Assembly: GCA_965248265.1 (NCBI GenBank)
Contig: CBDFJF010000002.1
Span: forward strand, 1,120,001-1,184,000
DNA from: Candidatus Latescibacterota bacterium
Lineage (GTDB): Bacteria > Latescibacterota > UBA2968 > UBA8231
DNA length: 64,000 nt
Reading direction: 5' to 3'
Shown: piece by piece, positions 14,270 to 39,027 of the stretch
Layout: every line of letters starts with the position of its first letter
How positions within the stretch are numbered: position 1 is the stretch's first letter
Made by a program: the position numbers and the translations under genes
Notes under the pieces: model-generated
What the model saw: only the letters and a program-made list of their open reading frames with translations
Databases searched by the model: none
Told to the model about the DNA's origin: nothing

Positions 14270-14483
14270 GCGCTTAGTGAGGATAAGATAGGTTATCGTT
14301 ACTAAGTCAGGCGGCGTTTTTTGCAATTTGCCGCATTTTGCCAGCATTGATGGCGGTTCTTTGTGGGGTGACGGTCGATCGACGAAAGCTGAGGCTTCGA
14401 ACAGTGTCCTCGGAGCCGCTCTGAGCGAAACGGGCGTTCTCAGCGACAGATCAGGGCACAGCGGTGACGTTGCTGTGACCGCG
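14270..14483 (+). repeat. ISCR/IS91 oriIS-side end, copy 1 (214 bp), followed by a transposase 3' fragment to ~14670
   Basis: GCGCTTAGTGAGGATAAG...GTTGCTGTGACCGCG, near-identical to the sequence downstream of the transposase at 36228-36441. Confidence 0.9.
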
Positions 14484-14491
14484 AATCGATT

Positions 14492-15424
14492 TCAGGCGGC
14501 GAAATCCAGTTCAGGTTGGGGGTGGGGGCGTGCGGGTGCGATCGGCGGTGCCCGTGATGGCAGGCCGACGCCTTCCAGGTAGCGCGCAATGGAGCGGGGC
14601 TCGGTAAGGGCCGCAACTCCCTTCATCGGGCCGCCGCAGGCGGGGCATATGGTTACGTCGAATCGAAAAAACAGATCGACATCGCAGACCAGAACCTCTT
14701 CCCGTCCCTCCCGATTCGCTCTCGCCAGGACCGAGCCGCTGGACGAGTAGACTACACTGCCACCACTGCACGCATGGTCCCAGGACATACCCGTGCGGTT
14801 GCAGGCCAGCATGGGGGCGCCGATCTCCTGCGTGAGCGCACCGAGTTCGTCGAAGTCGGGCATGTTGCGACGGTTGTTGGGATAGAACACGACCTGGGGC
14901 CCCAATGCCCTGGCTCGCTCGATGCAGCGAGGCGCTTCCCCGTCGGAGCAGACGAAGCAGGTGGCCTTGATCCCATCGAACTCGAACAGCTCCGGACCCG
15001 TACCCGGATCGTATAGCGCCCATTCGTTGCGATATCCCGTATCCGTCGGGTCGGACCAGATCCAGGTCTTGCGGTATCCGTGCACCAGGCCCTGGGGGCC
15101 GACGAACACCTGTGAGATGTAGAACCGCTCGTCGTCGATTTCGGACAGGCCGAAGCTGATGAAGCAGTCTTGCTCTCGCGCCAGGGCGATAATGGACGAG
15201 GTCGAACGCCCCCCCGGCACAGGTTCGGCGTACTCCTGCAGATGTTCCGTGTAGTCGCTTACCGTGCCTTCGTGAAAAATGATCCAGCGCGCGCCGCGAT
15301 CCCGCGCCTGGCGCACGAAGGCGTGCATCTTGTCAAGATTGCCATCGACATCTTCCGGCCGGGCGTCGAACTGTACCAGCGCTACGCGGATTCCAGGCAC
15401 TCGAATGGCTCCAATGACTTCCAA
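14492..15424 (-). CDS. Carbon-nitrogen hydrolase (nitrilase family) fused in frame to the IS91 transposase C-terminal ~58 aa
   Basis: Nitrilase-family catalytic motifs IIFHE, YRK and FVCSD. After ...VCDVDLF the sequence switches to FRFDVTICPACGG...ELDFAA. Confidence 0.85.
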   Translation of the reverse strand: MEVIGAIRVPGIRVALVQFDARPEDVDGNLDKMHAFVRQARDRGARWIIFHEGTVSDYTEHLQEYAEPVPGGRSTSSIIALAREQDCFISFGLSEIDDERFYISQVFVGPQGLVHGYRKTWIWSDPTDTGYRNEWALYDPGTGPELFEFDGIKATCFVCSDGEAPRCIERARALGPQVVFYPNNRRNMPDFDELGALTQEIGAPMLACNRTGMSWDHACSGGSVVYSSSGSVLARANREGREEVLVCDVDLFFRFDVTICPACGGPMKGVAALTEPRSIARYLEGVGLPSRAPPIAPARPHPQPELDFAA

Positions 15425-15465
15425 AACACCTGTTGATTGGCGCGGAAAACTTCAGCACGCGCGAC

Positions 15466-16194
15466 TCACCGCTTCTTGTGCCAGGCCTTCTCGAAGTGGT
15501 CGCGGGGGGCAAAGCCCAGGATTCGCTTGGCCTTCTCGTTGGAGAACTGACGGTGGGGCAGGTCGCCGAAGATGTTGAAGGCCTCGCAGCGGGAGGGCAA
15601 CGTCGCCAGATCGACCTCGAGGGCGAGCCGGAAGGCCTCGCCGACGTCCCGCCACGATGTGGTGAACGGGGTCAGATCCTCTCCCTCCCGCGCATCGTCG
15701 TCGTGGCGCAGGTGGAAGAAGAGCAGGGTCAGGACGTGGAGATCGAAATTCTCGGTGAAGACCCTGCAGATCTCCTGCCCAAGCCCCTTGGTGATCGGGT
15801 ACAGGCTGGTCGATGTCTGTGCCGGTACGTCGGGATGGATGTCGTAGTCGAAGTCGGTGTAGGGGAAGCCCTGGATGGTGAAATGGGGACCGCTGTTGAC
15901 GACCCGCCCGATGCCGTGTTCCAACGCCGCGCGCATCGCGTTGTAGCAGCCGCGCGTGCTCACGTCGAAGGCGAGTTTTCTATCCTCCCGCAGCACCGAC
16001 AGGTTGACGATCGCCTCCCTACCCTCGGCCGCCGCCACTACTTGATCGAGGTTCGCCACGTCCAGCTGCCGCGACTCGTGCTGCGTATCGATCGGCACGA
16101 CGTCGGTCACCAGCAGCTCGTGGTGCTCACCGAGCGCCTTGACCACCGACGGCCCCATGCGGCCACCGCCGCCGAGAATCAGGACCCGCATCAA
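15466..16194 (-). CDS. NAD-dependent epimerase/dehydratase (uronate dehydrogenase-like)
   Basis: GGGGRMG Rossmann motif and YPITK (YxxxK). Confidence 0.8.
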   Translation of the reverse strand: MMRVLILGGGGRMGPSVVKALGEHHELLVTDVVPIDTQHESRQLDVANLDQVVAAAEGREAIVNLSVLREDRKLAFDVSTRGCYNAMRAALEHGIGRVVNSGPHFTIQGFPYTDFDYDIHPDVPAQTSTSLYPITKGLGQEICRVFTENFDLHVLTLLFFHLRHDDDAREGEDLTPFTTSWRDVGEAFRLALEVDLATLPSRCEAFNIFGDLPHRQFSNEKAKRILGFAPRDHFEKAWHKKR

Positions 16195-16910
16195 CTGCCT
16201 CCTCCCGTGGCCGGCTGGAACACCGGCTCATAGCTCAGGTTGCTCCTGGCGCGGCCGATCAGGAATCGGGACCGGGCAAACTCCGACTGTATGTGATAGA
16301 TCGCCCAGGTGTCGGCCGGCGATTCGAGGGAGCCGACAAACGCCTGCACGGCATCCTCGATCTCGAGCCAGCTGGTATCCAGCGGCTGGCCAGCAGCCTC
16401 CGCGGCGGTCACCAGGGTCCCGAGCCTGAGCAAAGTCACATTGATCCGTCGTTCCCGGGCAAACTCGCGGACCGTGAACTCGCCGAGGTGTCTCGCCAGC
16501 ACGTCCGCGTCAGTCGTGGGCGCCGGCCGCCACGATTCGGTCACCGTCCAGTCTTCGTCGTGCCCCTCGAACAGGCGCAGGGTGCTGGTGTAGATCGCGT
16601 GCCCGATGCCGGCGTCAGAGGCGGCGTTGAAGAGGTTGTAGGTGCACCGCGTCTGGAAGTCGATCATCCGGCTCTCCGGCTGCAGCGACTCCGCAAGAAC
16701 GGACGACGGCGGTTCAGCTACGTGGATGACCGCATCCATGCCGGCGACCAGGGTATCGGTCTCTTCCTCGTGACCGAGCTTGCACCTGACGAAATCGAAG
16801 TCGGTCTCAACCGGCACCAGGTCGGTGAGGCGCAGCTGGTGGTGCTCGCTCAATGCCGCGGCCAGCCGTTGCGCCAGTTGCGAAGCGGCCGAGGTGATCA
16901 GGATCTTCAT
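16191..16910 (-). CDS. NAD-dependent epimerase/dehydratase-like protein (degenerate motifs)
   Basis: Extended SDR-like fold. Overlaps the next gene by 4 bp. Confidence 0.7.
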   Translation of the reverse strand: MKILITSAASQLAQRLAAALSEHHQLRLTDLVPVETDFDFVRCKLGHEEETDTLVAGMDAVIHVAEPPSSVLAESLQPESRMIDFQTRCTYNLFNAASDAGIGHAIYTSTLRLFEGHDEDWTVTESWRPAPTTDADVLARHLGEFTVREFARERRINVTLLRLGTLVTAAEAAGQPLDTSWLEIEDAVQAFVGSLESPADTWAIYHIQSEFARSRFLIGRARSNLSYEPVFQPATGGGS

Positions 16911-16944
16911 TCGCTGTTCCCCGTTATGGCGGGTACGTTGAGTT

Positions 16945-17521
16945 TCAGAACGACGCTTCTTTGGCCTTCACCAGCGCGGTAATCACCTCGTTGGTGGGCG
17001 CCGCCGTGCCGACTTCGCGGGCCACTACCGGGACCATGCCGTTGATGGCATCGATCTCGGTGCGCCGGCCCGCCAGGTAGTCGAGAAGCATGGAGGGCCG
17101 TGCATCGGGCATCTTCTCGGCAAAGGCCGTGATGTAGGCGGTGGCATCGTCGAACGAGAACCGCACGCCTTTTGCCACGCCGGCCTCGTAGGCCTCGAGA
17201 CCGCAGCTCAGCGCCACGCCCCAGGCGTTCTCGTCGGCCATCAATTCGCCAATGGTCTTCTCCAGCACCGTCGTAGGTCCGCTCAGGGCGACGTTGCAGA
17301 TGAACTTCTCCCAGACCAGTTGCTGGATGTCGTCGTAGGTTCCGATGTTGAATCCAGCCTCTTTCCAGACGTCGGCCACCTTCTCGAGACGCTCGCTGAT
17401 TTCACCGTTCATTTCGCCGAAGCGGATCAGCTGCATTCCGTTGTGATGGGCGTGACCGGGGCCCTTGATGGAGGCACCAAAGCCGCCGGCAACGCCGATC
17501 ATAATTCTCTCGGCCGGCAGG
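16945..17521 (-). pseudogene. Ketopantoate reductase (PanE/ApbA) C-terminal part, 5'-truncated by end copy 2
   Basis: Motifs WEKFICN, PSMLLD and RTEIDAING. The N-terminal Rossmann domain is missing. Confidence 0.85.
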
Positions 17522-17733: not shown

Positions 17734-17891
17734 CGGCTTTTGAGGTTTTTCGCGGGCGTTGAGGGCGATATGTGTGTTGCCCATCATTCGGTGAACTACG
17801 GGCCAGCGGATGGGGTGCCCTGATCAGCCTCTGCGGGCGCAGCGGCAGCTGTCAGCTAGAGATGGGGACGCAGCGGTGTCTGGCGTCGGTC

Positions 17892-18712
17892 TCAGGCGGC
17901 AAAGTCGAGCTCGTCTTGGGGATGAGGCCGTTCCGGGGCGATGGGCGGCGAGCGCGATGGCAAGCCGACACCCGCCAGATAGCATTGGATAGAACGTGGA
18001 TCGGTGAGAGCAGCCACTATTTTCATGTGGCCACCGCAGGCGGGGCACACGGTAACGTCCACGCGAAAAACCCGTGCTAGCAAGGCGGCCCAGGCCAGTC
18101 GGTGCCGGCGTTGGGCGGGGGTGGGCTCCTCCGTATGCGCACAGGTCTCCGCTTCGGGGGCCTCTTCTTTGGGGCCCGGTACGATCTGTGCCCGATCGGC
18201 CGCATTGGGCGCCAACACGCCATGGTAGCGCACCAAGTTGAGGCGCCGTGGCGGCACCAGGGCGGCCAGTTTCTCTATCAATTCTTGCGGCGAGAGCTCA
18301 ATTCGATAGGTGCCGTCCGACCAGACCGTTTTCAGGTCGAAAGCCACTCTTTCGGTATCCAGGATCTGCAGGCGTCCCGCTGCAAGCGGCGGTCTATTGA
18401 CGTAGCGGCACAGTCTCTCCAGGCGGGTACGATCGGCGGCCGGCACGCGGGTGGCCGCATGCAGGGAGAAGCCGCGCGCGGCAAAGCACAACGGGCCGGT
18501 GCGGATGCCCTGCTGGGGATCGAGCAGGCGCCGGCGCACGGGCTGGCCAGCACGGTCGCCGGTGGCCACCCTGGACTGGATCGAGGCCGCAGTGATTGTT
18601 GCCAGCAGAGGCTCCTGCTCCATGAGCGGATCGGTACTGCCCTCTTCCAGCAGGCCGCGCCGTAGCAGCAGACGGACAACGCGTTGCGCCGTGGTCTCGA
18701 CGATCTGTTGCA
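17892..18712 (-). pseudogene. IS91-family transposase, second variant, C-terminal fragment
   Basis: QQIVETT...LERLCRYVNRPP...CPACGG...ELDFAA. Similar but not identical to 36469-37884; the HUH and Zn-binding N-terminal part is absent. Confidence 0.9.
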
Positions 18713-18799
18713 TTGACGTTCGACGGGCGAGACACTCAAGACGCGTTTGCCAGGGCCGATCACATGGTTGAGAATAGCCGTGGGGCAAAGGAGAATTCA

Positions 18800-20014
18800 A
18801 TGAAAATCAAATCCGTCGAAGTCGTCAGCATCGAACGCCCAGGCGCCTCAAACGCATCCACAGGGTCTGGAACGACATTGGCAGCCTCAACCGCGTTCGT
18901 CCCTGAAACAGAAGGCCGTCGAAAAGCCTGGCCCACGCAAATCGAAGTCGCCAACCCCATGTCAAAATTCCCACGCTTCAAAACACGCCGCCAACTCTAC
19001 AGCGCCAAGCAATGGCCGAGGTTCGGTGTCAAAGTCACCGCTGAAAACGGCACCTGGGGGTTGGGCACATCGGCCGGACGGCCAGCAGCCATGGTCGTCG
19101 AAGACGCATTTGCCCATATCCTTGAAGGTGAAGAATGCCTTGCGATTGAAAAGCTCTGGGACATGATGTTTCGTGTCTCCAAACCTTTCGGCACAGCTGG
19201 TATCGCCTCTCTCGCCATCAGCGCTGTAGATCTCGCCTTGTGGGATCTCGCTGGCAAACTGCAGAACAGACCTGTCTACGAACTCCTCGGCGGCCCCGTG
19301 CGTGACCGCCTGTTCACTTACGCCACTGGCGACGATGTCGATTGGTACAGGGAATTGGGATTTCGCGGTTTCAAACTCCCCTGCCAATACGGCCCCGTCG
19401 ATGGTTTGCAGGGATTGCAGGCAAACGAAAAGCGCATCGCAGAAGTCCGCCAGCTCATCGGCGACGACAGCGAGCTCATGCTCGACTGTTACATGGCCTT
19501 CGATGTCGAATACGCCACCCGCCTTGCCGAACGTCTGCGTGCCTATGGCCTGCGCTGGATGGAGGAATGCCTGATCCCCGAAGACGTTCTCGGCCACATC
19601 GACCTCAGAAAGCGACTGCCCTGGATGGCCTTGGCCAGTGGTGAGCATTTCTACACACCTTATCCCTATCAAATCATCATCGAAAACCGTGCCCTCGATG
19701 TCCTTCAACCCGACATTCAATGGGTCGGCGGCATGACCGCCTGTGTCAAAATCGCCAACATGGCCGCCTCTGCCGGTTTGGAAGTCTGCCTTCACGGAGG
19801 TGGTCGCGATGCCTACGGCCAACACTTCAGCTGGGCCATGCCCAACACCCCGTGGGCCGAATACTACATCGGCTCAGATCCCGGCATTCCCCTCGAAGCA
19901 GTCGCCCAACCCGGCTCTGTCATTCCACGCGACAGCTATCTCGAATTCACGCAAACAGGCCCCGGTTTCGACCTCGGTGTCGAAGAAGAATGGCTTGTAC
20001 CGTTTCAGCCATAG
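18800..20014 (+). CDS. L-rhamnonate dehydratase-like enolase-superfamily enzyme
   Basis: Motifs AISAVDLALWDL, LMLDCYM, WMEE, SGEH and QPDI. Confidence 0.85.
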   Translation: MKIKSVEVVSIERPGASNASTGSGTTLAASTAFVPETEGRRKAWPTQIEVANPMSKFPRFKTRRQLYSAKQWPRFGVKVTAENGTWGLGTSAGRPAAMVVEDAFAHILEGEECLAIEKLWDMMFRVSKPFGTAGIASLAISAVDLALWDLAGKLQNRPVYELLGGPVRDRLFTYATGDDVDWYRELGFRGFKLPCQYGPVDGLQGLQANEKRIAEVRQLIGDDSELMLDCYMAFDVEYATRLAERLRAYGLRWMEECLIPEDVLGHIDLRKRLPWMALASGEHFYTPYPYQIIIENRALDVLQPDIQWVGGMTACVKIANMAASAGLEVCLHGGGRDAYGQHFSWAMPNTPWAEYYIGSDPGIPLEAVAQPGSVIPRDSYLEFTQTGPGFDLGVEEEWLVPFQP

Positions 20015-20036
20015 TGATCATTTGCAAGGAGCTCAG

Positions 20037-20527
20037 ATGATAGTCGATTACCTCAGTAACGCACACAACTACTACGGCCTCGGGCCGCGGATAGAGGCTG
20101 CTCTGCGATATCTTCAGGATGACGATTTCGACGATTTGGAGGAGGGCAGCTTTGTGTTCGATCTGGAGCAGGAAGGGCTGCGGGCAGTCCGCAGCAACTT
20201 CGAGTCGCGGCCGATCGAGGACCCAAGTACGAGTTCCATCGGCGCTCCATCGACGTGCAGCATTTCATCGAGGGCGAGACGCTGTGCGGCTGGGCGCACA
20301 TCAGTCAGCTGAAGCTGGAGGAATACCATGCCGAAGAGGACTACCTGTTCGGCACGGGCGAAGGTGACCTGATCCGCGCCCGCCCCGGGACATTCTTCAT
20401 CTTCGCCCCTCAGGACGGCCACATGGCCAACCTGCAGCCGCCGCAAGCTCCAGGACCGATCAAGATGAAGAAGTGCACGGTGAAGGTGGACCTCGACGAC
20501 TCGAGTGCCTACTCCCGCGGTGCATGA
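20037..20527 (+). pseudogene. YhcH/YjgK/YiaL (DUF386) family, frameshift near 20223
   Basis: MIVDYL...AALRYL continues in a shifted frame as KYEFHRRSIDVQHFIEG...FFIFAPQDGH...KKCTVKV. Confidence 0.75.
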
Positions 20528-20545
20528 TTCGGGCGACCGGCCTCT

Positions 20546-21661
20546 CTACCCACTCACTTCAGCGGCCCAGGGCAGATCGTAGGAGGGGATATTGACGAAA
20601 CGGTCCATGCCCAGATGCAGCCTGATCCTCGAACACGGCTTCATCGCGACGCGGAAAAAAGAAGCCCCCACGGCGACTTCGTTCTCCTCGACCTCGCCGG
20701 CCATCTCCTCGTCGTAGCGTTCCTCTTCTTGCCAGTTGGTGCCTGAAAAAACGTCGTGACTGCGTCCGCTGGCCAGAGCCTGGTAACGGATGGTCGTGAA
20801 TCGATGTTCGCCGAAGGCGCCGGCCTGCACCACCAGCTCCCGCCGGGTCGCCGCGCTCAGGTTGACCAGTGTCACGACTGCACCATCGGCGTCGATCGAT
20901 TCGACCAGTGCCGCCACGTCCGGCGGCAGTCCCGGTCGCTTGCGGTCCCAGTCGTAGTAACGCAACCGCACCAGCAGCAGGCCGCCGTTGAAGCTGCCCG
21001 CCCATCGTCAGCTGCACCAGCCCCTCGGTGGTGATCGGATTGCGCACCTGCAGGTAGTGGTCGCCGTAGGTCGCCGGATCCTGCTCGTCGTGGGCCATGT
21101 AGGCCAGACGCTGGTAGACCTGACCGTGGTTGTAGTGCAGGATCTGCTCCGGGTAGTCGGGGAACTCGCCCCGCAGATATCCCAGCCAGGTCGCCTCGTG
21201 ACCTCCGCGGTCCTTGCCGCCTTTGACCTGTATCGTCTCCCAGTCTCGCGAGTTCGGGTCGCGCTGGCGCTCGATCCGTTCCATGTCGGCCGCCTCCATC
21301 GAGATAGACCAGACGTGGGCCATGAACCGGGCCTGTAACGGACTGTAGCCGTCCCAGCCCTTGTCGTGGTGGTGATGGGGAACGAACAGGGCCCCGTCCC
21401 GGTCTTCCCCCGTTGGCCATCATCAGGTCGATCTGCGAGCGGGCTAAATCCATGTACTTCTGATCCCGGGAAACCAGCATGGCATTCTCGGCGCCGCTGA
21501 GCACCGCGTCGCCCATGGTGTGCCAGCCGTGCGGCCAGGTCCAACCGTAGTACCCGCCGTACCACCGTCCGCCCAGGTACTCCCCGACCTGGCCTGACAG
21601 GCCCACGTTGTCGGGAAGAATGCCGTCGTTCGCTTCGACCCGGTCCATCCAGGCGCCCACG
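20546..21661 (-). pseudogene. Paralog of the 55853-57877 / 57964-59883 family, 5'-truncated and frameshifted
   Basis: Motifs NDGILPDNVG, WYGGYYGW, RPGLPPDVAALV and VQAGAFGEH are spread over three frames. Confidence 0.85.
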
Positions 21662-21875: not shown

Positions 21876-22018
21876 CCGTCGAAGGGGACTTTGTGATGAT
21901 CGGGGTCTGCGCGTCGAGTAGATCTGGCGATTCAAAGGCCTTAAGGTCCTCTGCCGGCAGGGAGTCGTCGGAGTCTTCGGGGACCTCGAAGCGCGTGCTG
22001 TCGCAAGTCAGGCCGGTC

Positions 22019-23071
22019 CTACTCGTTGCCCCAGGGGTAGGACGGGATGCGCAGTGATCGATCGGTGGCGGGCAAGTTCACCCGCGCGCCTGCATTGTTG
22101 CTGGAGAGGTGGATAGCGAAGCCGATCTCGGTAGCCCGGCGGGCGTGATCCACATCGCAGGCTGTGGTACCGCCAGTGCGTACTGCCTGTGCCAGATCAC
22201 TCACTGCGGCTGGACCGGCAGGCCATCCCTCGGGCAGGATTGGCAGCTCCAGCGGGCGTGGTTGCAACTCTGCCCGCCCATCGCCGCTGGTCTCGGTCCA
22301 CAGGTGCGCCTGGCGGGCATCGTTGAGGATCAGCAGCCGCCCGTGTTCGCCCAGTACCTCGAACCCGGCACCGGGGCCGCCCTCCGGTATCGCCACGGCT
22401 ACCGCACCGTTGTCCAGACCGATCTGCGCCCTGCCAGTGGGATCCATGCGACTTCGCGCGTCGGGCGGCTCGTCGGAAACGTCTTGCACGAAGCCGCTCA
22501 CCCACACCGGTTCGGGATCGCCGGCCAGCGCCAGCATGGTGTCGTACCAATGGCAGCCGTGATTAATCAGGTTGGGCAGACCGTAACCGGTAACGCCGGT
22601 AACGGCGCCGATCGCACCATCGGCGATGACCTGGCGCAGGAAGCGGTAGGAGGAGTCCCAGCGTCGATCCAGTCCGAAGGCCAGCGGGACATTGGCGCGC
22701 CGGCATGCCTCCACAATGCGATCGGCCTCCTCCAGACTGGTCGCCAGCGGCTTATCGGAGAGAATGCCCCGCACTCCGGCCGCCAACGCCTGCTCGCATT
22801 GCTCCGCGTGCATCGTCTGGCGGACGGCGATACAGACGATGTCCGGCTGGGCCTCCTGGAGCATTTGTGGGTAGTCATCGTAGCTGGGGATGTCGCCCCA
22901 ACATTCGACGAAGGCCGCCCTGGTTTCCGCTCCCAGATCGAACACCGCGACCATCTCTGTCCCGGTAACCGCAGCAAAAGCGCTGGCCCAGTTGTGGCCG
23001 GCCTGTGGGCGCGTCAACATGCGGTGACAGCCGGAAATCGCTACGCGCAATGGCTTTTCAGTCTGTGTCAT
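22019..23071 (-). CDS. Gfo/Idh/MocA family oxidoreductase
   Basis: Motifs PDIVCI, SDKPLA and HGCHWYD. Confidence 0.85.
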   Translation of the reverse strand: MTQTEKPLRVAISGCHRMLTRPQAGHNWASAFAAVTGTEMVAVFDLGAETRAAFVECWGDIPSYDDYPQMLQEAQPDIVCIAVRQTMHAEQCEQALAAGVRGILSDKPLATSLEEADRIVEACRRANVPLAFGLDRRWDSSYRFLRQVIADGAIGAVTGVTGYGLPNLINHGCHWYDTMLALAGDPEPVWVSGFVQDVSDEPPDARSRMDPTGRAQIGLDNGAVAVAIPEGGPGAGFEVLGEHGRLLILNDARQAHLWTETSGDGRAELQPRPLELPILPEGWPAGPAAVSDLAQAVRTGGTTACDVDHARRATEIGFAIHLSSNNAGARVNLPATDRSLRIPSYPWGNE

Positions 23072-23074
23072 CTG

Positions 23075-24031: not shown

Positions 24032-24057
24032 GGTGGTCCTCCTCTTTCTTTTTTGGC

Positions 24058-24812: not shown

Positions 24813-24820
24813 AATCGATT

Positions 24821-25511: not shown

Positions 25512-25558
25512 TAGAACCGTACCCCCTCCATACCGCTCGATCTCCCAGAGGAGCCGCG

Positions 25559-27570: not shown

Positions 27571-27652
27571 AACGGGGTTGGTGCCGTCAAAATACCGATG
27601 TTACCATCCCTCCTGGTCCGCTTCATGCACAAGAACAAGGATCCGAGGTGAT

Positions 27653-29092: not shown

Positions 29093-29170
29093 GCTTCGTG
29101 GTGTTGGCCAAAGGCGATGGCGTGGCCGTCCGGATCGCGCACCGCAAACTCCTTCATATCGTAATCATCC
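29089..29170 (-). pseudogene. Glyoxalase/VOC-family C-terminal remnant
   Basis: Manual translation gives DDYDMKEFAVRDPDGHAIAFGQHHEA*. Confidence 0.6.
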
Positions 29171-29211
29171 TAAATACAAGGGTGGCGATGCCAGTCGCTG
29201 CGGGCTCGACC

Positions 29212-30470: not shown

Positions 30471-30789
30471 AATCGATTTCAGGCGGCGAAATCCAGTTCA
30501 GGTTGGGGGTGGGGGCGTGCGGGTGCGATCGGCGGTGCCCGTGATGGCAGGCCGACGCCTTCCAGGTAGCGCGCAAGCGACTCCAGTGACGGGTCGCAGG
30601 CGTGGTAGACATCGCACTTCGAGCGTATGGCGAGAAGTTCCCCTCGCAAGGTCTGACCTCGAAGCGAACCGGCCCGCCACCTCGGCGAGATCATCGCCGC
30701 CCGGACTCTGGCTGGCGCTCGACCACTTCACCGGCCACGTCGGCAGCTTTCTCACCCAGGCGTAGCCTGCCGCGCGGGCGTCGACAGCG

Positions 30790-32547
30790 CTAACGCGGTG
30801 GGATCATCGGCAGCACGATGTGTGAAGGGCTCCCCGAGTTGTGCACGACCGTGTTCGCGGCCACCTTGCCCGACGCTTCCCGGTGAATCGGACCGCCCGT
30901 GTTGAGGTTGCGGTCGAAGCGGGGAAAGCTGCTGCTCGTGACCACAATCCTCATGCGGTGCCCCTCGAGAAACACGTTGCTGGTGGCCCACAGGTCGATC
31001 TCGAAGCGATACACCTCTCCAGGTACCATCAGCTCCGGCTTTGCGAACGAGTCTCGGTACCGAGCCCGAAGGATGCCGTCGCACACGGGGCGTGAGTACC
31101 CGTCGGGGTGCACGTCGGTCACCCGTACGATCCAGTCGGTGTCGGGCGCCGAGGAGGTGGCGTAGAGGACGGCCTTCACCGGGCCGGTGACCTCCAGTTC
31201 CTCGGTGAGTGGCTCGCTCGTGTACGTGAGGCAGATCTCATCTACGGGTCGCTGGTCTATCACGCCGTCGGAGATCCCCAGGGTGGCGCCGCCCAGACTG
31301 GGCACCGGTCTTTGCGGGTCGTACTCGAAGGTGTCCGCCCCTTCGGCCCCTGGAGGCGGCTCAGCCGACAGCAAGCCGTCGTTCAGCGACTCGATCGAAC
31401 CGCTGCGTGGCGCGCGCAGGTAGTAGTTGACGTACGTCGTGTCGGGGAGCGGCCAGTCCTCCTCGTCGCGCCATTCGTTGCGGCCCATCACGAAGATGCG
31501 CACCGGCGGCTCGTCCATCACTCCGTTGTCGATCCCCTTGAGCCAGTAGTCGAACCAGGGCAGACGCATCTCGTTAAAGTCTCTGGCCGCGCTCTCTCCG
31601 AAGTCGAACTCGCCGACGACGTGTTCGGCGATGTTCGGGGAGCCGTGGATCCAGGGCCCGATGATGAGCTTCTGACTATTACGCGCCTCCTCGGTGCGCG
31701 CCTTCGCCTTCATGCCGAGGAAATTCTTCAGCGTGCCGGCCAGGAAGATGTCGAACCACGCCCCCTGGTGGTACGTCGGCGTCTCGATCTGGTCGTGGTG
31801 CGGCTCGATGCTGAGCCCTACCCAGTACGGCCCGGCCTCGGGGTGGTCGAGCCAGACATTGTGCCAGTCGCTCAGCCCTTCGAGGAAGGTGCACGGGTAG
31901 ACAGGCAACCTGGCCAGCCAGTCGTCCATCTCCTCGCCCACCTTGCACAAGAGCTTCTTCTGGCGCTCGAGCTCTTCCCCTTCGACCAGATGCTCGAGAT
32001 TCTTCTCGGTCACGGTGTGCGCCCAGTAGGTGTTGAAGCCGAGCTCGAAGGCGCCGTCGCGATAGACCCACTCGCGCTGGAAATCGGCCGACGATTCGCG
32101 TACGAATGTCGCCCGCAGGTGGGGCGGCCGGCTGAGCGCGGCGCGGTACTGGGTCGCGCCGGAATAGGAGCCACCGATCATGCCGACATTGCCGTCACAC
32201 CACGACTGCGCGGCCAGCCACTCGATCGTGTCGTACCCGTCCTGATTGGCGCCGGCGCCGTCGTCTCTGAAAGGGTAGAATTCGCCGCTAGAGGCGAACC
32301 TGCCGCGCACGTCCTGGACGACGACGGCGTACCCCCGTTGCGCGAAGAATTCGGGAGAGCCCACTGCGTTCTCCGAAGCCCCGTCCTTGTTGTAGACGGT
32401 GCGCTCGAGCAGTACCGGGAACGCCCTCTCGGCGTCCGGGCGGGTCACGTCGGCGCGCAGGATCGTGCCGTCGCGCATCGGCATTTCCAGGTTCTTCTCG
32501 AAAACCGTTTCAAACTGGGGTTGTGACAGGACTGCAGTGTTGATCAC
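30790..32547 (-). CDS. CocE/NonD family hydrolase
   Basis: Motifs PMRDG, QDVRGR, GGSYSG nucleophile, IGPWIH and SSSFPRFDRN. Confidence 0.9.
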   Translation of the reverse strand: MINTAVLSQPQFETVFEKNLEMPMRDGTILRADVTRPDAERAFPVLLERTVYNKDGASENAVGSPEFFAQRGYAVVVQDVRGRFASSGEFYPFRDDGAGANQDGYDTIEWLAAQSWCDGNVGMIGGSYSGATQYRAALSRPPHLRATFVRESSADFQREWVYRDGAFELGFNTYWAHTVTEKNLEHLVEGEELERQKKLLCKVGEEMDDWLARLPVYPCTFLEGLSDWHNVWLDHPEAGPYWVGLSIEPHHDQIETPTYHQGAWFDIFLAGTLKNFLGMKAKARTEEARNSQKLIIGPWIHGSPNIAEHVVGEFDFGESAARDFNEMRLPWFDYWLKGIDNGVMDEPPVRIFVMGRNEWRDEEDWPLPDTTYVNYYLRAPRSGSIESLNDGLLSAEPPPGAEGADTFEYDPQRPVPSLGGATLGISDGVIDQRPVDEICLTYTSEPLTEELEVTGPVKAVLYATSSAPDTDWIVRVTDVHPDGYSRPVCDGILRARYRDSFAKPELMVPGEVYRFEIDLWATSNVFLEGHRMRIVVTSSSFPRFDRNLNTGGPIHREASGKVAANTVVHNSGSPSHIVLPMIPPR

Positions 32548-32562
32548 GCGGTTCCTTCGATA

Positions 32563-33714
32563 TCAGGGCAGGGCCTCGAAAAGGCGATCGATGTCGTCGT
32601 GGTTGTTGTACACCGACGGTGACAGGCGCATCTTGTTGCCGAAGCGCATGGCGATGTGAACGTCGTTGTTGCGGCAGCTGGCCATGGCTCGATCTGGGTC
32701 GGGCGCCACAAAGGCGACAATCGGGCTCTCGTTTCCCCTGGGAGTGATCGATTCGTACCCGCGCTGCGGCAGCTCCTCCTGCAGGCGCCCGGTCAGCTCC
32801 CGCGCATGATTGCGGATGTTCTCGACTCCCAGGTTCAGGATGTATTTCACGCTCTCCCGCGCGCAGATGACCCCTTCGTAGGAGGGGTAGCTGACCTCGT
32901 ACGCGCCGATCCCGGACGACGGTGAAAACGAGATCTCATCGCCGTCCAGGCCGGAATTCTCGCTCCAGGGCGGGTAATTGTACGAAACCCCGCCGGTGGG
33001 CTGGGACGGCTTGAGCACGGTTCCCTGCAGGCCGGAACGCACGTACAGAAACCCGAAACCCTTCACACCCATCAGCCACTTGAAGGTCGAGCAGGCGGCG
33101 AAGTCGATGCCCATCGCTTTGACGTCGATCGGCACGCATCCAGCTGCTTGCATTATGTCGACGTAGATGTACGCGCCGTGGTCGTGGGCGAGCTTGCTCA
33201 GGGCACTCACGTCGGCGAGGTATCCGTTGATGTTGGAAACGAGGGCCACCGATATGAGCCGCGTGTTACCATCGACCGCCTGTCGCATCGCGTCCATGTC
33301 GATCTGCCAGTCGCGGTTCTTGACGACGCGCACGTCGAGGCCCTGCTGCGCGCGAAACTTGTAGTTGCCGACACAAGGGTTGAAGTTCAGATCGGAGATG
33401 ACCACGTTTCCGCCCTGGAGGTGGTCATTCAGTCCATTCAGGATGTTGCTCTCCGATTCCACCGTGCTGCGCGCGTGGGCGATCTCTGTGGGGTCGGCGT
33501 TGATGAGCTCGGCGAAAAGGATTTTCGCCTTGTCCCGCGGCTCGGCCCAGGCCGGCCACCAGGGCTCGCCGACATCGTGTGTGACCCACTCCACATAACG
33601 GTGCAGCGCCGCGGCCGAATGCATGCTGATCGGATGCGACGAGGCGTTGTCGAAGTAGGCCATCGTGCGCGCCCGCGGAAAATCCTCGCGGACCCTGTCG
33701 AATAGGTCGCTCAT
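32563..33714 (-). CDS. Aminotransferase class V / cysteine-desulfurase-like PLP enzyme
   Basis: Motifs YFDNAS, VDIMQAAG, STFKWL and RLSPSVYN. Confidence 0.85.
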   Translation of the reverse strand: MSDLFDRVREDFPRARTMAYFDNASSHPISMHSAAALHRYVEWVTHDVGEPWWPAWAEPRDKAKILFAELINADPTEIAHARSTVESESNILNGLNDHLQGGNVVISDLNFNPCVGNYKFRAQQGLDVRVVKNRDWQIDMDAMRQAVDGNTRLISVALVSNINGYLADVSALSKLAHDHGAYIYVDIMQAAGCVPIDVKAMGIDFAACSTFKWLMGVKGFGFLYVRSGLQGTVLKPSQPTGGVSYNYPPWSENSGLDGDEISFSPSSGIGAYEVSYPSYEGVICARESVKYILNLGVENIRNHARELTGRLQEELPQRGYESITPRGNESPIVAFVAPDPDRAMASCRNNDVHIAMRFGNKMRLSPSVYNNHDDIDRLFEALP

Positions 33715-33920
33715 ATTCGCCCCCCGTCGAAGTCCGGCTCCGCCCGAAACACTTGACTGCTCACGATAATATAGCTTCTATGGACAAACCCGAACGGATA
33801 GGAATGTGGAGTCATCGGTAGCTGCGCCTCGCCGGGCGGCCTGACAGTGGAATCCATTCCTGCAATCGGCAGTTGAGCCCCATCCGGCTATTTTTCGATT
33901 ACCAACTTTCCACTACGTTA

Positions 33921-33937
33921 TAATTATATTATAATTA
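33921..33937. promoter_or_regulatory. Perfect AT-rich inverted repeat (TAATTATA-T-TATAATTA); probable brnTA promoter/operator
   Basis: Contains TATAAT and lies 4 bp upstream of the brnT start codon. Confidence 0.6.
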
Positions 33938-33941
33938 AGGC

Positions 33942-34229
33942 ATGGCAGATCTACAGTTTGAATGGGACGAAGCCAAAAACAAAGCGAACCAAAGGAAACA
34001 CGGCGTTTCATTCGAGGAAGCCCAGACGGTTTTTTTCGACGAGCATGCTGTACAGTTCTTTGATGACGATGTGCTTGGAGAGGATCGCTTTCTGATGCTG
34101 GGATGCAGCGCCAGGCTCCGCGTTTTGATTGTCGTCCACTGCTTTCGAGATGAGGAGTCAGTAATCCGCATTATTTCTGCCCGCAAGCCCACGAGGACGG
34201 AGCGGTCCGAGTACCCGGAGGAGTCATGA
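33942..34229 (+). CDS. brnT: BrnT family toxin
   Basis: Motifs FEWDEAKNKANQRKHGVSFEEA, EDRF and IRIISARK. Confidence 0.9.
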   Translation: MADLQFEWDEAKNKANQRKHGVSFEEAQTVFFDEHAVQFFDDDVLGEDRFLMLGCSARLRVLIVVHCFRDEESVIRIISARKPTRTERSEYPEES

Positions 34230-34450
34230 AAAAGGAATACGATCTTTCCAGCATGAAGCGCCGCAAGAACCCCTTCGCCAGCCGACTCAAGAAACAGGTG
34301 ACAATCCGCCTGGGAGTGGACGTAATCGAGTACTTCAAGGCGCTTGCTGATGAAACCGGCATGTCGTACCAGAACCTGATCAATCTCTATTTGCGCGACT
34401 GTGTATCCAGTAATCGCAAGCCGGTCCTGGAATGGGAAGAGGTCGGATAG
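34226..34450 (+). CDS. brnA: BrnA family antitoxin
   Basis: Motif KQVTIRL..DVIEYFK...YQNLIN. 4-bp overlap with the toxin gene. Confidence 0.85.
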   Translation: MKKEYDLSSMKRRKNPFASRLKKQVTIRLGVDVIEYFKALADETGMSYQNLINLYLRDCVSSNRKPVLEWEEVG

Positions 34451-34475
34451 ATCCGTGTCCCGGGGAGAGTCATCC

Positions 34476-34900
34476 ATGAAAACCGCTGTCGTTGCAGGAG
34501 TCGGACCGGGGCTCGGTGCCGCTCTGGTTCGCAAGTTCGTTGCTGAAGGTTGCCGGGTGGGCATGCTCGCCCGCTCGCCCGATTACCTGGAAGAGCTACA
34601 AGCTGAACTGGGCGAAGAGAACGCCCTGGCCGTTGCCGCTGACATCACGACGGATACCGCCGTAGTGTCCGCCTTCGCTCGAGTCAGGGATCGCTTCGGA
34701 CCGGTCGACATTCTGGTCAACCACGCCAGCCTGTCGAACTGGAAAGGCCTCATGGACATAACACCGAAGGAGTTCGAGCGCGCCTGGCGCGTGACCGTTC
34801 TCGGAGCGCTGCATTGCAGCCGGGTGGCTGCAACCGACATGCTGGCCGACAATCGTGGTGGGACCATTCTCTTCACGGGAGCGACTTCATCCATTCGCGG
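34476..34900 (+). pseudogene. SDR oxidoreductase, 3'-truncated by end copy 6
   Basis: Motifs AGVGPGLG, DILVNHA and FTGATSSIRG, then repeat sequence. The YxxxK region is missing. Confidence 0.85.
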
Positions 34901-34971
34901 GCGCTTAGTGAGGATAAGATAGGTTATCGTTACTAAGTCAGGCGGCGTTTTTTGCAATTTGCCGCATTTTG
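34901..34971 (+). repeat. oriIS-side end, copy 6 (truncated, 71 bp)
   Basis: Identical to the first 71 bp of the element. Confidence 0.9.
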
Positions 34972-34997
34972 GGCTCCGCTTCATCCGATTGTTAGCT
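34972..34997 (-). mobile_element. Truncated integron attC site (R'' AGCTAAC plus start of L'')
   Basis: The minus strand reads TATCCAGCTAACAATCGGATGAAGCGGAG at the gene stop, the inverse of GTTAGCTGGATA before the gene start. Confidence 0.7.
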
Positions 34998-35943
34998 GGA
35001 TACTTTATACGGATTAAGTTCACGCAGGATCAAATTACGCATATTTTGGACGATGCAGAGTACACCCGCGCTCGACAAATCTTGCACTGAATCAACTTGA
35101 AGAGATGACAATGTGTTTGCGTGCATGAATGCATCGTCGACTGTTTTTCTGCTACTGAGCGCGGAATAGAACGTCTTGCAGAAGTAACCACTGAAATCCA
35201 CGTAGACGGTGCTCGTCGACGCGATGACAACTTGAACATCAGTTGCCTGCAAAGCCCCAATTACGTTGGCGGAGTTGCAGGTCATGAACAATGCAGTCTT
35301 TACACCACGGCCGTGTAGAATAGACGCCAGGCGCGAAGGCGGGAGTGAACCATCGGCTAGATGAATCAAGCCATCAGAGTCTACGTATACAGAAGTGCAC
35401 GATTTCCACATCATTCATCAGCGCTTTGGATAAAGTTGCTGACGTCACAGAAGGCAAATGTATGACTGAATCACTTGGTAGTAGGGCGTCCCGAATCACC
35501 TTAGCGTCAGCGGCCGCAAATCGATCATAGAAATCGCATTGGCCGTCAATCTCAGCAGAAGCCACAAGAACGTTGATTGGGTTGCCTTTTTGTTGGTTGG
35601 GCGTTTCGATTTGCTCTCGGCACGCGTCTTCAGCGAGCTGTTTCCACGTCCTAAGGGAATCTACGGTAAATCGATCTGAGTCGTTGTCTATTAGCTTAGC
35701 ACAGTTCTGACAAAGCCAAATGCCATTGCTAGGTGCCTTGCGTTGCTCAGATGTCATCGTCTCATCGAATCGTGGGCCGAGTTCGGACGCTGCGGTAATG
35801 TGACACGCTACACCGATGTTTACGTTCTTGGTTTCGTCCTCGCGTGGGCCGGTGGTGAGCTGACGACACCTCGGGTTTGAACAGCGCAGCCCAACACGTG
35901 TCGCGAGAATGTGCTTAACGTCAATTGTGAAGTCGTCTCGCAT
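34992..35943 (-). pseudogene. Integron cassette gene: HNH-like Zn-binding domain plus CHAT/caspase-like domain, frameshift near 35390
   Basis: CSNPRC, ACHITAAS..GPRFD and NGIWLCQNC..LID; then IVHF / FMTCNS and F..FY.AL....V..AF. Lower GC than the flanks. Confidence 0.65.
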
Positions 35944-35952
35944 CTTTTATCC

Positions 35953-36075
35953 AGCTAACGCAGCAATCACCTGCGCCAGGTTCACTGTTTGTGTTGAACC
36001 TCCGGTCCAACCCGCGAGCCACTGATTTGATTCCAGCACCACCATCAAAGCCGTCAGGTGCATTGCATGCTACGC
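35953..36075 (-). mobile_element. Integron attC site (~123 bp)
   Basis: Minus strand: GCGTAGC-ATGCA-ATGCACCT...AGGTGAT-TGCTGC-GTTAGCT. L''/L' pair with one extrahelical base; R' is GTTRRRY-like; R'' is degenerate (AGC for AAC). Confidence 0.7.
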
Positions 36076-36209
36076 GTCCCTCATTATCCAAAGGTTCTAT
36101 TCAAAGCCACTCTCCTGGAACCTTGGCTCCCAAACTTCCACGTCTTCCAACTCGGGCATCGTTACCCGAAATCGTTGTGGGCATTCGCTCTGCCTATTGG
36201 AAATGGGGA

Positions 36210-36227
36210 GCGCTTAGTGAGGATAAG
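36210..36227 (+). repeat. oriIS-side end, copy 7 (18-bp stub)
   Basis: GCGCTTAGTGAGGATAAG directly abuts copy 8. Confidence 0.85.
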
Positions 36228-36441
36228 GCGCTTAGTGAGGATAAGATAGGTTATCGTTACTAAGTCAGGCGGCGTTTTTTGCAATTTGCCGCATTTTGCC
36301 AGCATTGATGGCGGTTCTTTGTGGGGTGACGGTCGATCGACGAAAGCTGAGGCTTCGAACAGTGTCCTCGGAGCCGCTCTGAGCGAACCGGGCGTTTTCA
36401 GCGACAGATCAGGGCACAGCGGTGACGTTGCTGTGACCGCG
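36228..36441 (+). repeat. oriIS-side end, copy 8, native position downstream of the transposase
   Basis: Ends 8 bp from the ancestral transposase stop codon (TGA at 36450-36452). Confidence 0.9.
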
Positions 36442-36468
36442 AATCGATTTCAGGCGGCGAAATCCAGT

Positions 36469-37884
36469 TCAGGTTGGGGGTGGGGGCGTGCGGGTGCGAT
36501 CGGCGGTGCCCGCGCGCAATGGAGCGGGCTCGGTAAGGGCCGCAACTCCCTTCATCGGGCCGCCGCAGGCGGGGCATATGGTTACGTCGAATCGAAAAAC
36601 GCGTGCCAATAAGGTCGACCAAGAAAGGCGATGACGGCGTTGGGCGGGCGTCGGCTCAGAACCTCGACCGGGGAGCGCCTGGGGGTCCTGCCTCTCTTCC
36701 TTGGGACCCGGTACAATCTGTGCCCGATCGGCCGCATTGGGTGCCAACACGCCATGGTAGCGCACCAGGTTGAGGCGCCGTGGCGGCACCAGGGCGGCCA
36801 GTTTCTCGATCAATTCTTGTGGCGAAAGTTCAATTCGATATGTGCCGTCTGACCAGGGTGTCTTCAGTTCGAAGGCCACCTGCTCGGCATCGAGGATCTG
36901 CAGGCGTCCCGCTGCCAGCGGTGGTCGATTGACGTAGCGGCACAGTCTTTCCAGGCGAGTGCGGTCGGCGGCCGGCACGCAGGTGGCCGCAAGCAAAGAG
37001 AATCCACGCGAAGCGAAGCACAGCGGGCCGGTGCGGATGCCCTCTTGAGGATCGAGCAAGCGTCGGCGCACAGGTTGACCGGAGCGCTCGCCGGTAGCCA
37101 CCGGACCCTGGATCGAGGCCGCCGTGATCGTCGCCAGGAGGGGCTCCTGTTCCCACAGCGGATCAACGCGGCCCTCTTCCAGCAGGCCACGACGTTGCAG
37201 CAGGCGCAAAACGCGTCGCGCCGTGGTCTCGACGATCTGTTGCACATCATCATCGCTAAGGGTCGGTGCGGCCACGAACTCCGGACCCACCTCGCCATCG
37301 ACGTAGACGCCGTCGATCATGAGGACATGGACGTGAGGATTGAGATTCAAAGATGACCCGAATCGCTGCACGAACGTCACCGAGCCGCAGCGACTGTGTT
37401 CGTATCCCTGCGCTCGTGCCTGACGTCGATACCAGCCGTAGACGACGCGCAGAAAAACGGCCAGTATCGCGCCCACCAACTCGCCGTCCCAGGCCAGGCG
37501 ATAGCGGATCTCATACGGCAGACTCAGCACCCATTGCCGCACCGGTACCCGCGGCAGGACCTCGTCCGTCAAGCGCGCAGCGGTGTCCACCATCCTTCGT
37601 CCCATACAGCTGGGACAAAAGGAACGTCGCTGGCACGAGAATGCGACGACGCGATCCTGAGTCCAGTCCTCACACCGTACCCGCAGGAATCCATGTGCCA
37701 GAATGCCGCATTCCAGATAGGCACGGAGTTCCTTCTCGACGTTGGCCGGCAGCTGGCGGTCCGATGAGCGTGTGCGCTCTACGAAAGTCTCAAGATTCTC
37801 GGCCAGCACCTGGTAAAGAGGTTCCTTCTCGGGGGTTCGGCGACGGTAGGAGAACCCGCTGCCATGGGTGTGAGCGGCTGGCAT
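36469..37884 (-). CDS. IS91/ISCR family HUH rolling-circle transposase, probably degenerate
   Basis: Zn-binding region YLECG..HGF..FSCQRRSFCPSC, QWVLSLP, HUH motif NPHVHVL, and single-Tyr LERLCRYVNRP. 3' frameshifting deletions relative to the fragments. Confidence 0.9.
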   Translation of the reverse strand: MPAAHTHGSGFSYRRRTPEKEPLYQVLAENLETFVERTRSSDRQLPANVEKELRAYLECGILAHGFLRVRCEDWTQDRVVAFSCQRRSFCPSCMGRRMVDTAARLTDEVLPRVPVRQWVLSLPYEIRYRLAWDGELVGAILAVFLRVVYGWYRRQARAQGYEHSRCGSVTFVQRFGSSLNLNPHVHVLMIDGVYVDGEVGPEFVAAPTLSDDDVQQIVETTARRVLRLLQRRGLLEEGRVDPLWEQEPLLATITAASIQGPVATGERSGQPVRRRLLDPQEGIRTGPLCFASRGFSLLAATCVPAADRTRLERLCRYVNRPPLAAGRLQILDAEQVAFELKTPWSDGTYRIELSPQELIEKLAALVPPRRLNLVRYHGVLAPNAADRAQIVPGPKEERQDPQALPGRGSEPTPAQRRHRLSWSTLLARVFRFDVTICPACGGPMKGVAALTEPAPLRAGTADRTRTPPPPT

Positions 37885-38167
37885 GCCTTGGTGGCACGCA
37901 AGATGGAGACCAGCCGTGAGTGTGCTCGAGTATCACGTGGTCCTGGCAAGGGAACCGTGGGCACTCGGCTACGCACACGTGTGTACCAGACGACACAACA
38001 CGGCAGCAGCGGACGAGTCCTCGTCGTGACGGAATCAGACCAGACTCGCCAGCGCTACCGCCGTATCTGCCCGGTTCGCTGCGCGACCTCTGTACCAAGT
38101 GATAATGGCGTCTATCGAGCCTACGCGTTGCGCCCAGCAAACCTCATGGGCTCTACTACACGCGTTT

Positions 38168-39023: not shown

Positions 39024-39027
39024 AGTC

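Follow-up and report, generated by a model that had tools for sequence, protein, structure and literature searches.

The DNA analysed here is a stretch of 64,000 nucleotides (nt), hereafter the window (C2:1120001-1184000), from the genome of a marine bacterium of Candidatus Latescibacterota (genome G000, 7.32 Mb in two contigs, C1 and C2, with no N). Within it, 24 kb of the chromosome form a true train of eight rolling-circle transposon ends of the ISCR/IS91 type, all facing in the same direction. A repeat search and direct reading of the sequence placed the eight copies on one strand, each opening at the same base with GCGCTTAGTGAGGATAAG, and the inner ends of the copies (c1 to c8) were set by MAFFT alignment and BLAST (Table 1). 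This confirmed, at all eight positions, the co-oriented copies with one common starting base and variable inner ends that an earlier, sequence-only reading of this DNA had described. The common end lies downstream of the transposase gene, on the origin (ori) side of the element. Truncation affects the transposase side in seven of the eight copies, which keep 18 to 507 nt, and all seven retain the ori side; were orientation random, eight copies of eight on one strand would have a probability of 2^-7. Over the first 214 nt, all copies of sufficient length to align, seven in number, match c3 at 99.1-100% identity. A ninth, solitary copy of the same subfamily (A) was found at C2:1839005-1839357 (ori plus 353 nt), 100% identical over the 214 nt; it lies 12 nt ahead of the start codon of a gene on the minus strand, and no repeat flanks it.

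The copies are separated by six unrelated segments of 1.2-5.2 kb with ordinary metabolic genes (cargo 1 to 6), the distances from element to element being 2851, 3928, 2723, 5151, 4324 and 1238 nt. The second distance includes the 979-nt fragment of another IS91-like element (B), which is missing ~42 nt at its own ori tip and all that lies upstream of about residue 213 in its transposase. The guanine-plus-cytosine (GC) content of the cargo is 60.5-65.3%, cargo 6 excepted, and by our own count from the list of open reading frames (ORFs) and the family matches, the transposase strand holds 14 of the 17 likely cargo genes. None of the segments is duplicated elsewhere in the genome at >95% identity over >500 nt, and for six unnamed cargo ORFs no family was found in Pfam or NCBIfam.

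Table 1. Copies of the element, intervening cargo and flanking genes, with positions counted from the first letter of the window.
Feature	Position	Strand	Content
P (left flank gene)	12453..14159	+	PD40/WD40-like beta-propeller, 568 aa, intact; Pfam PD40 E 5.5e-72
c1	14270-14670	-	ori-side end, 401 nt; retains ancestral transposase C-terminal tail
cargo 1	14671..17521	all genes -	CN_hydrolase (nitrilase-type; 3' end cut at junction), two NAD-epimerase-like ORFs, PanE without first ~126 residues
c2	17522-17733	-	ori-side end, 212 nt; up to element nt 214 with a 2-nt deletion
element B fragment	17734..18712	-	second, diverged IS91-like element, 81% to A; 979 nt
cargo 2	18713..21661	MR_MLE +, unnamed ORF -	enolase-superfamily MR_MLE gene; ORF 20872..21660, open to junction
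c3	21662-21875	-	ori-side end, 214 nt; inner end identical to that of c2
cargo 3	21876..24598	all -	GFO_IDH_MocA oxidoreductase, Zn-ADH, C-terminal half of UxuA
c4	24599-25105	-	ori-side end, 507 nt
cargo 4	25106..30256	mixed	small ORF, 608-aa GH2_N-like protein (+), sulfatase (-), multi-copy family gene (-) cut at junction
c5	30257-30576	-	ori-side end, 320 nt
cargo 5	30577..34900	mixed	S15 peptidase (-), class-V aminotransferase (-), unnamed ORF (-), SDR (+) cut after profile position 139 of 195
c6	34901-34971	-	ori-side end, 71 nt; stops 6 nt past second ori hairpin
cargo 6	34972..36209	-	low GC (50.5%), two unnamed ORFs
c7	36210-36227	-	first 18 nt of ori end, abuts c8; stops at first loop base of ori hairpin 1
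c8	36228-38167	-	1940 nt; sole copy with transposase gene
phyH (right flank gene)	38232..39209	-	325 aa, intact; Pfam PhyH

The transposase gene of c8 (37884..36469, minus strand) encodes 471 aa with a zinc-binding domain and a HUH/Tyr domain (Pfam Zn_Tnp_IS91, E 3e-17, and Y2_Tnp, E 1.1e-28, both over the cut-off). Its best NCBIfam model was NF052416, 'ISCR element clade Ia' (E 1.4e-111, 374 bits against a curated cut-off of 925), and transpos_IS91 scored 103 bits, under its cut-off of 125. In tblastn against plasmids, the protein matched ISCR1 and ISVsa3/ISCR2 at 38-41% identity over 94-97% of its length, and its HUH motif (HVHVL) aligns with that of ISVsa3, as does an identical LERLCRY motif that holds a single tyrosine. 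The nearest relatives of the transposase lie on Candidatus Latescibacterota contigs. Judged by protein similarity, the element thus classes as an ISCR-like member of the IS91 superfamily of HUH elements, as had been proposed: a distant relative of the ISCR clade that corresponds to no named ISCR, and not IS91 proper, because the target tetranucleotide is absent.

The common end was also correctly taken for an oriIS downstream of the transposase gene, with subterminal hairpins predicted at nt 4-37 (z -2.6) and nt 42-65. At the opposite, termination (ter) side, c8 ends in an ACGCGT...ACGCGT palindrome, whose fold is no better than that of shuffled sequences. The element therefore has two unlike ends, no terminal inverted repeats, and palindromes at both the ori and the ter end, as expected of IS91/ISCR elements, and its hairpins and ter palindrome match the descriptions of oriIS and terIS in print (PMC13181058, PMC13393415), those of IS91 and IS801 in the first of these. 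The ancestral transposase stop codon lies at ~nt 223 and element nt 214 lies 8 nt beyond the stop, so the 214-nt form constitutes essentially the entire non-coding ori region. c8 has lost the conserved C-terminal tail of the transposase to two deletions, of 28 and 1 nt; this tail is kept in c1, c4 and the related subfamilies. Since the resident transposase lacks this tail, the array is probably passive now, unless a related copy acts in trans. No promoter-like site that could serve as an outward promoter of the ori region was found in 36100-38300, and the window contains no tRNA gene as a candidate integration site. IS91-like fragments, internal and ter-side pieces included, are numerous in the genome (42 BLAST pieces, 35 tblastn pieces). 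Nearly all IS91-like copies of G000 lie on C2, between 0.9 and 2.8 Mb, and one transposase fragment lies in the window outside the array (51961-52176, plus strand, residues 225-301, 53% identity).

We examined the two kinds of junction separately. The outer junctions, where the end of a cargo segment meets ori nt 1, fall within genes in six of seven cases, cutting phyH, PanE (TIGR00745 positions 127-303 of 305 remain), an unnamed ORF, UxuA (Pfam positions 177-351 of 352), the multi-copy family gene and SDR (positions 1-139 of 195). In the multi-copy family, paralogs extend past the breakpoint, and in the unnamed ORF (20872..21660), whose frame is open to the junction, similarity to a paralog reaches within 4 nt of it (tblastx, among the matches listed). 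Of the cut genes named by the sequence-only reading, the cuts in phyH, PanE, UxuA, SDR, the multi-copy family gene and the unnamed ORF hold; its labels 'DUF4091-like' and 'integron cassette gene' found no support, as 29212..30108 matched no Pfam family at E<=1 and cargo 6 gave a sub-threshold HNH_2 match only. The missing halves of the cut genes are absent from the window, and those of UxuA, SDR and PanE do not lie across the copies. The outer flanks end in TTCC, CAGG, CACG, TTCA, AGGT, GCGG and GGGA, with no tetranucleotide common to the seven. GCGC, the first 4 nt of the copies, was considered as a target tetranucleotide and rejected, as native phyH and paralogs read TTCG, ACGT and T(T/C)TG at this place.

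The inner junctions, where the inner end of a copy meets cargo, are non-coding in four of six cases, with short open frames only, and three of these four follow the stop codon of a gene on the minus strand at a distance of 20-213 nt. The remaining two lie at the 3' edge of a gene and in the non-coding ori region of element B (joined at ~B nt 43). The median abutting open frame measured 579 nt at outer junctions, 213 nt at inner junctions and 609 nt at random positions, a comparison made post hoc on a small sample. No target-site duplication was found at the solitary copy, at three near-full relatives or at three insertion-deletion differences (indels) in a related genome, G018. As is typical of ISCR elements, all seven truncated copies lack the ter side and have foreign DNA joined to ori nt 1.

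The whole array is bracketed by a direct repeat (14108-14269 and 38168-38328, 96.3% identity; hereafter the 162-bp repeat), in which the final 52 nt of P and the final 97 nt of phyH are joined by a 13-nt spacer. Its left copy ends exactly at c1 nt 1 and its right copy starts with the very base that follows c8 on the ter side. The repeat is too long and too diverged for a target duplication, and nothing comparable flanks the four other copies tested (the solitary one and three near-full relatives). Instead, it fits the product expected of a single crossover between an uninterrupted P-phyH locus and a putative circle composed of c1 through c8 plus 162 bp. The divergence of the two repeat copies (3.7%, compared to <=1% among the ori copies) suggests that donor and recipient were of different lineages. 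A P ortholog in the relative G011 has 81-84% nt identity; there, P and phyH lie on different contigs, and on a metagenome contig, L016, other DNA follows phyH. Another metagenome contig, L015, keeps the P-phyH adjacency, matching 39660-38168 at 92.6% identity and ending at the boundary.

We then turned to contigs and unitigs of public sequencing runs, the read-derived data used here, which show presence and not absence. In X20, which is probably the source sample and hence not independent of the assembly, the unique segments were covered without differences, and a short-read unitig bridges the junction of cargo 6 and c7, again with no differences. The listed joints, all with a shorter side of 34 letters or less, and uncovered stretches were not counted as evidence, and no joint between ori copies was among the matches listed. 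Contigs of another organism (organism B, X24) match 25107-29796, within cargo 4, at 97-99.7%, closer than the 88% of the genome's own paralog; the match stops exactly at 25107 and is followed by 2.2 kb unlike the array stretch. A further contig of this organism spans the join between the c8 ter end and the P tail (38167|38168) at ~95%, and no match to cargo 6 and no comparable match to cargo 3 or 5 were seen there. In a seawater run (X2), a contig matches uxuA up to 24594 and continues for 3.2 kb unlike the array, and another contig starts to match exactly at 38168. Because these contigs stop at 24594 and 25107 and run into unrelated DNA, neither in the seawater organism nor in organism B does the DNA on the two sides of c4 form one native locus. 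Together with the gene halves that are missing across the copies, this bears out the earlier view that the array does not consist of simple insertions of miniature inverted-repeat transposable elements into one native locus. Exact-pattern scans for the ori end returned nothing among metagenome contigs or genome contigs.

Trains of this kind are not confined to the window. In G000 itself, two more were found. A sister subfamily contributes three co-oriented copies with the same exact ori end, ~10 kb apart (C2:2411980, 2422541 and 2431628; ~25, 175 and 130 nt to their inner ends), with a ter-side fragment further on at C2:2454609-2454818. Ori ends of the B type form a co-oriented, plus-strand run over C2:2696889-2801835 (2696889, 2725829, 2759539, 2768345, 2800264), which ends in a near-full element whose transposase (2800470-2801834) looks the most intact in the genome. 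Long same-strand runs turned up when five closed relatives were surveyed by tblastn, and analogous trains are present in G002, G008, G015 and G018, four other genomes that are closed or nearly so. In G008, which belongs to another genus, locus L011 (C1:5648000-5667999, positions 6727-16852) harbors four co-oriented copies with an exact ori end and differing inner ends, whose ori ends (7250, 12384, 14380, 16852) lie among heparinase II/III, cupin, PhyH and MauE-like (membrane-protein) genes. The L011 region is flanked by paralogous 649-aa ORFs (622-2529 and 17603-19510), 80% identical.

The largest train occurs in G018 (C1:3620001-3760000), where the terminal motif is found 29 times on one strand and never on the other. 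Twenty-eight of these are genuine ori ends, in 133 kb, all finishing in ...CCTATAC(T/A)T, with a median spacing of 4.0 kb and copy lengths of 151 to at least 1099 nt, and they belong to three subfamilies arranged in blocks. Its congener G002 has 24 blocks of at least 700 nt in common with it (C1:4295001-4415000; 91-99% identity), in a partly different order. At least five ori-bearing segments of G018 are absent at sites that are contiguous in G002, and at three such sites G018 has an extra 5.6, 3.9 and 1.5 kb, consisting of an ori fragment and 1-5 kb that abut the ori end. The cargo of one indel is a 95% inverted copy of DNA located 40 kb away in G002. The flanks in these trains are, on both sides, less coding than random positions (p 0.02, 0.04), and many of the copies there may therefore be plain insertions; the trains of G008 and G018 may be of this simpler kind. 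G002 has a second train at C1:2485001-2565000, with 11 ori-end motifs on the minus strand and one on the plus strand. We considered as a further example locus L012 of G021 and dropped it, as its two repeats have only the 3' end of the transposase in common and no ori end.

Along the chromosomes, the orientation of copies flips in blocks. For G000, we rejected replichore or strand bias as the cause of the co-orientation, as the blocks flip inside a single GC-skew arm (C2:0-3.46 Mb). The cumulative GC skew of G000 rises over this arm and falls across the rest of C2 and C1:0-2.94 Mb, and the two contigs therefore look like parts of one chromosome and not like two replicons.

What process could have produced the array? 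We favor, at about an even chance of its being right, the view that it is genuine chromosomal DNA built by an ISCR-like HUH rolling-circle element through capture, circle closure and stacking. First, prematurely terminated copies (ori plus 18-507 nt) would insert, mostly into non-coding DNA just downstream of operons. From an ori that lacks a ter end, and with transposase supplied in trans, rolling-circle replication would then run into the adjacent operon, stop at an arbitrary point and be ligated to ori nt 1, and this circle closure would leave a cut gene joined to an ori. Such circles would re-enter beside a resident ori, either by homologous recombination through the common ori segment or by transposase action there, so that co-oriented units would accumulate next to the single full element. 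In the last event, a round starting from the outermost ori (c1) would have copied 23.9 kb, continued 162 bp beyond the ter end of c8 and closed, and the resulting circle would have been rescued by homologous recombination with the uninterrupted P-phyH locus of a slightly different lineage, yielding the 96% repeat.

Each of these steps has a precedent in IS801, IS91 or ISCR elements. IS801 forms ori-end miniatures of 229, 360 and 679 nt by premature termination and recruits adjacent DNA (PMC3189936), and its one-ended events yield circles of 4-42 kb in which the ori801 border is constant and the far border varies (PMC6354349). In a sphingomonad, an IS91 circle was found to carry a catabolic gene (PMC5737581). 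For ISCR1, the model of Toleman and colleagues, as summarised in PMC7707992, has a read-through circle rescued by homologous recombination and explains the duplicated 3'-CS.

Several observations weigh against this account of capture and stacking. No circle, excision variant or junction read was seen in contigs, the only read-derived data. An intact subfamily-A transposase was found nowhere in the genome, and the inner ends have no ter-like motif in common. CGCG, a candidate pseudo-ter signal, lies within 4 nt of four of the seven independent ends, but occurs 16 times in the 1940-nt element; it was noticed post hoc and is not relied on. Neither a donor locus for any of the six cargo pieces nor another array unit was found in this genome, so that assembly in other hosts and subsequent transfer must be assumed, and in relatives, all from outside the genus, homologs of even neighbouring cargo genes are dispersed, with no donor locus revealed by synteny. 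Likewise, no uninterrupted P-phyH locus (the empty site) was seen, the P-phyH adjacency being found only in this lineage and on L015. In the relatives, the G018/G002 indels hold the ori end internally, 75-260 nt of DNA from outside the element lying on its inner side, and the outer junctions of G008 and G018 are not enriched in genes. A circular-permutation model of the G018 modules was also tried and rejected: in the one event tested (event B), the 218 nt on the inner side had no match beside the cargo end in G002.

The sequence-only reading had proposed a different history, in which the element snowballs: an abortive ori lands a few kb outside the resident one, and the next round carries the intervening DNA along. 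Each cargo piece would then be a former left flank of the composite from an earlier location. The same architecture would result, a polar array with the full element at its ter-side end. The 162-bp repeat accords with this part of the proposal, showing that the outermost ori can drive the entire composite, and the local co-oriented runs in relatives fit local hopping. The specific history fares worse, since both types of junction should then be alike as target sites, yet six of seven outer junctions lie in genes while four of six inner ones are non-coding. It would also need six or seven transpositions of a 2-24-kb composite, each ending at the ter end of c8, and rolling-circle transposition is replicative, yet no copy of the composite exists anywhere in the genome. 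Moreover, the join of the c8 ter end to the tail of P, present at ~95% in another organism, looks older than the near-identical ori copies. We therefore regard snowballing as unlikely.

A different order of events, which we consider similarly improbable, starts from co-oriented ori fragments downstream of operons in one native island, followed by ori-anchored deletions that reached outward into genes. The inner junctions do resemble insertion sites (being non-coding and 20-213 nt past minus-strand stop codons), most G018 ori fragments lie in non-coding DNA of a backbone contiguous in G002, and one-ended IS801 events yield deletions bounded by ori801 (PMC6354349). Such deletions, however, leave the 162-bp repeat unexplained, and a single native island sits poorly with the GC of cargo 6 (50.5% compared to 60-65% for the others) and with organism B, whose contigs, a record of presence only, have cargo 4 at 97-99.7% and nothing of cargo 6. 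Intramolecular targets would also be expected to prefer non-coding DNA as insertions do, and they do not.

It seems very improbable to us that the array arose by ordinary decay in an insertion hot spot, through independent full insertions and random deletions without any capture. The genome is littered with IS91-like fragments, among them internal and ter-side pieces, and most genomic IS801 fragments have been judged reorganisations (PMC3189936). Random deletions are hard to reconcile with eight of eight copies in one orientation, with seven of seven truncated copies that hold the exact ori nucleotide and lose the ter side, with two copies ending alike at nt 214 and copies 99-100% identical, or with the recurrence of the pattern at 28 of 28 ends in G018. 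Finally, a repeat-induced chimera through the 214-nt repeat can be set aside as extremely unlikely, for although the short-read unitigs of the probable source sample break within repeats (as expected at k=31) and just one junction is bridged by at least 31 letters on each side, the genome is in two contigs with no N, its repeats of 18-507 nt are far below long-read length, the unique junction of cargo 6 and c7 recurs without differences in an independent library of that sample, and analogous trains exist in four other genomes.

Beyond the favored account of capture, circle closure and stacking, we raise tentatively, as a fairly unlikely possibility, that in this bacterial family the oriIS end of ISCR-like elements is a reusable joining and attachment site, onto which modules with one to several metabolic genes are closed, stacked, excised and reshuffled, in an HUH-driven, integron-like accretion that reaches trains of >100 kb, as in G018, whose modules differ in presence and order from those of G002. 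If this were true, such accretion would be one of the main ways in which genes for polysaccharide and sugar-acid utilisation are moved about. The assembly of complex resistance regions is attributed to ISCR elements, whose transposition mechanism rests largely on analogy to IS91 and a few clinical structures. The array offers a clean natural record in a non-clinical host, with precise ori junctions, arbitrary far ends, a recombination footprint and graded premature stops at 18, 71, 214, 320, 401 and 507 nt, and these features give testable predictions on the nick position, the minimal sufficient ori and the sequence-independence of termination. The trains in relatives suggest that the same process shifts ordinary metabolic operons at large scale in marine heterotrophs; if so, the role of rolling-circle insertion sequences would extend beyond antibiotic resistance and plant-pathogen effectors.

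Two side observations concern cargo 4. The multi-copy family to which its last gene belongs (29212-30256) has at least 12 paralogs in the genome (e.g., at C2:572047, 585894 and 1945777) of ~350 aa, with no Pfam or NCBIfam match, and the frame of the array copy is interrupted by a stop between 30108 and 30255. In addition, a 174-nt segment (27473-27646), overlapping the start of a 96-aa ORF (27348..27638, minus strand), is 98.9% identical to C2:1837116-1837289, which lies directly after another truncated IS91-like transposase tail.

With respect to known systems, the remark of the earlier reading that it knew of no description of such an array proved too strong, as ISCR1 and ISCR2 have been published in multi-copy units and some plasmids bear up to eight ori801 (PMC7707992, PMC7722449, PMC6354349). 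The known multi-copy ISCR arrays consist of one unit repeated, as in pNT1F34-tetX4, or of two to three copies in resistance regions, and the open-access literature that we searched gave no account of environmental chromosomes in which truncated oriIS ends are stacked in one orientation into trains with several cargoes. Functionally, the array is ISCR-type gene capture, and what is new is the 162-bp bracket, the asymmetry of the junctions and the trains found elsewhere in the family.

Its comparison to an integron holds as an architectural analogy, in that acquired modules form, in both, a polar array next to the gene for the enzyme that recognizes the repeated site. The claim of equivalence goes too far, as the boundaries here are ISCR-like ori ends where integrons have attC sites around single-gene cassettes, the modules are multi-gene pieces with broken terminal genes, no common promoter was found, and the window has no tyrosine recombinase (PF00589 has 18 matches in the whole genome, none in C2:1120001-1184000, the nearest being at C2:769754 and C2:3032080). 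Eukaryotic Helitrons resemble the array in their HUH rolling-circle mechanism and in capturing host gene fragments when the termination signal is bypassed (PMC4778049).

Helitrons encode a Rep/helicase protein, have different ends and reside in eukaryotic hosts. We know of no homology between them and these elements beyond the HUH fold class.

IS801 of Pseudomonas syringae resembles the array in its ori-end miniatures of discrete lengths and its one-ended recruitment from a fixed ori801 border, and it further reaches up to eight ori801 per plasmid, with any ori-bearing fragment mobilisable in trans (PMC3189936, PMC6354349). Unlike the copies here, IS801 has a consensus tetranucleotide at its ends and targets (GAAC/CAAG), and the accessible parts of these two papers report no co-oriented stacked trains of its fragments. 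More generally, in IS91, IS801 and IS1294, a target tetranucleotide (CTTG, GTTC or GTCC) abuts oriIS, which is not so here. The tandem units of ISCR2/ISVsa3 (pNT1F34-tetX4 and other tet(X) contexts) likewise have co-oriented copies with kb-scale cargo between them, and in tet(X) contexts intact and partial ISCR2 copies flank the cargo (PMC7722449). In pNT1F34-tetX4, however, one identical 9.3-kb unit with a full transposase each time is repeated (an amplification), whereas here the cargo differs and only the last copy holds the gene. ISCR1 in complex class 1 integrons is alike in several respects (PMC7707992): the transposase belongs to the same clade level (38% identity, HUH and LERLCRY motifs), the cargo abuts oriIS, read-through past terIS and recombination partially duplicate the flank (the 3'-CS there, the 162-bp P-phyH repeat here), and repetition of read-through and rescue gives multi-copy units. 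In contrast to those integrons, the array lacks an integron platform and resistance genes, lies in an environmental marine host and has eight ori ends, of which seven are truncated, along with six multi-gene metabolic fragments that all differ.

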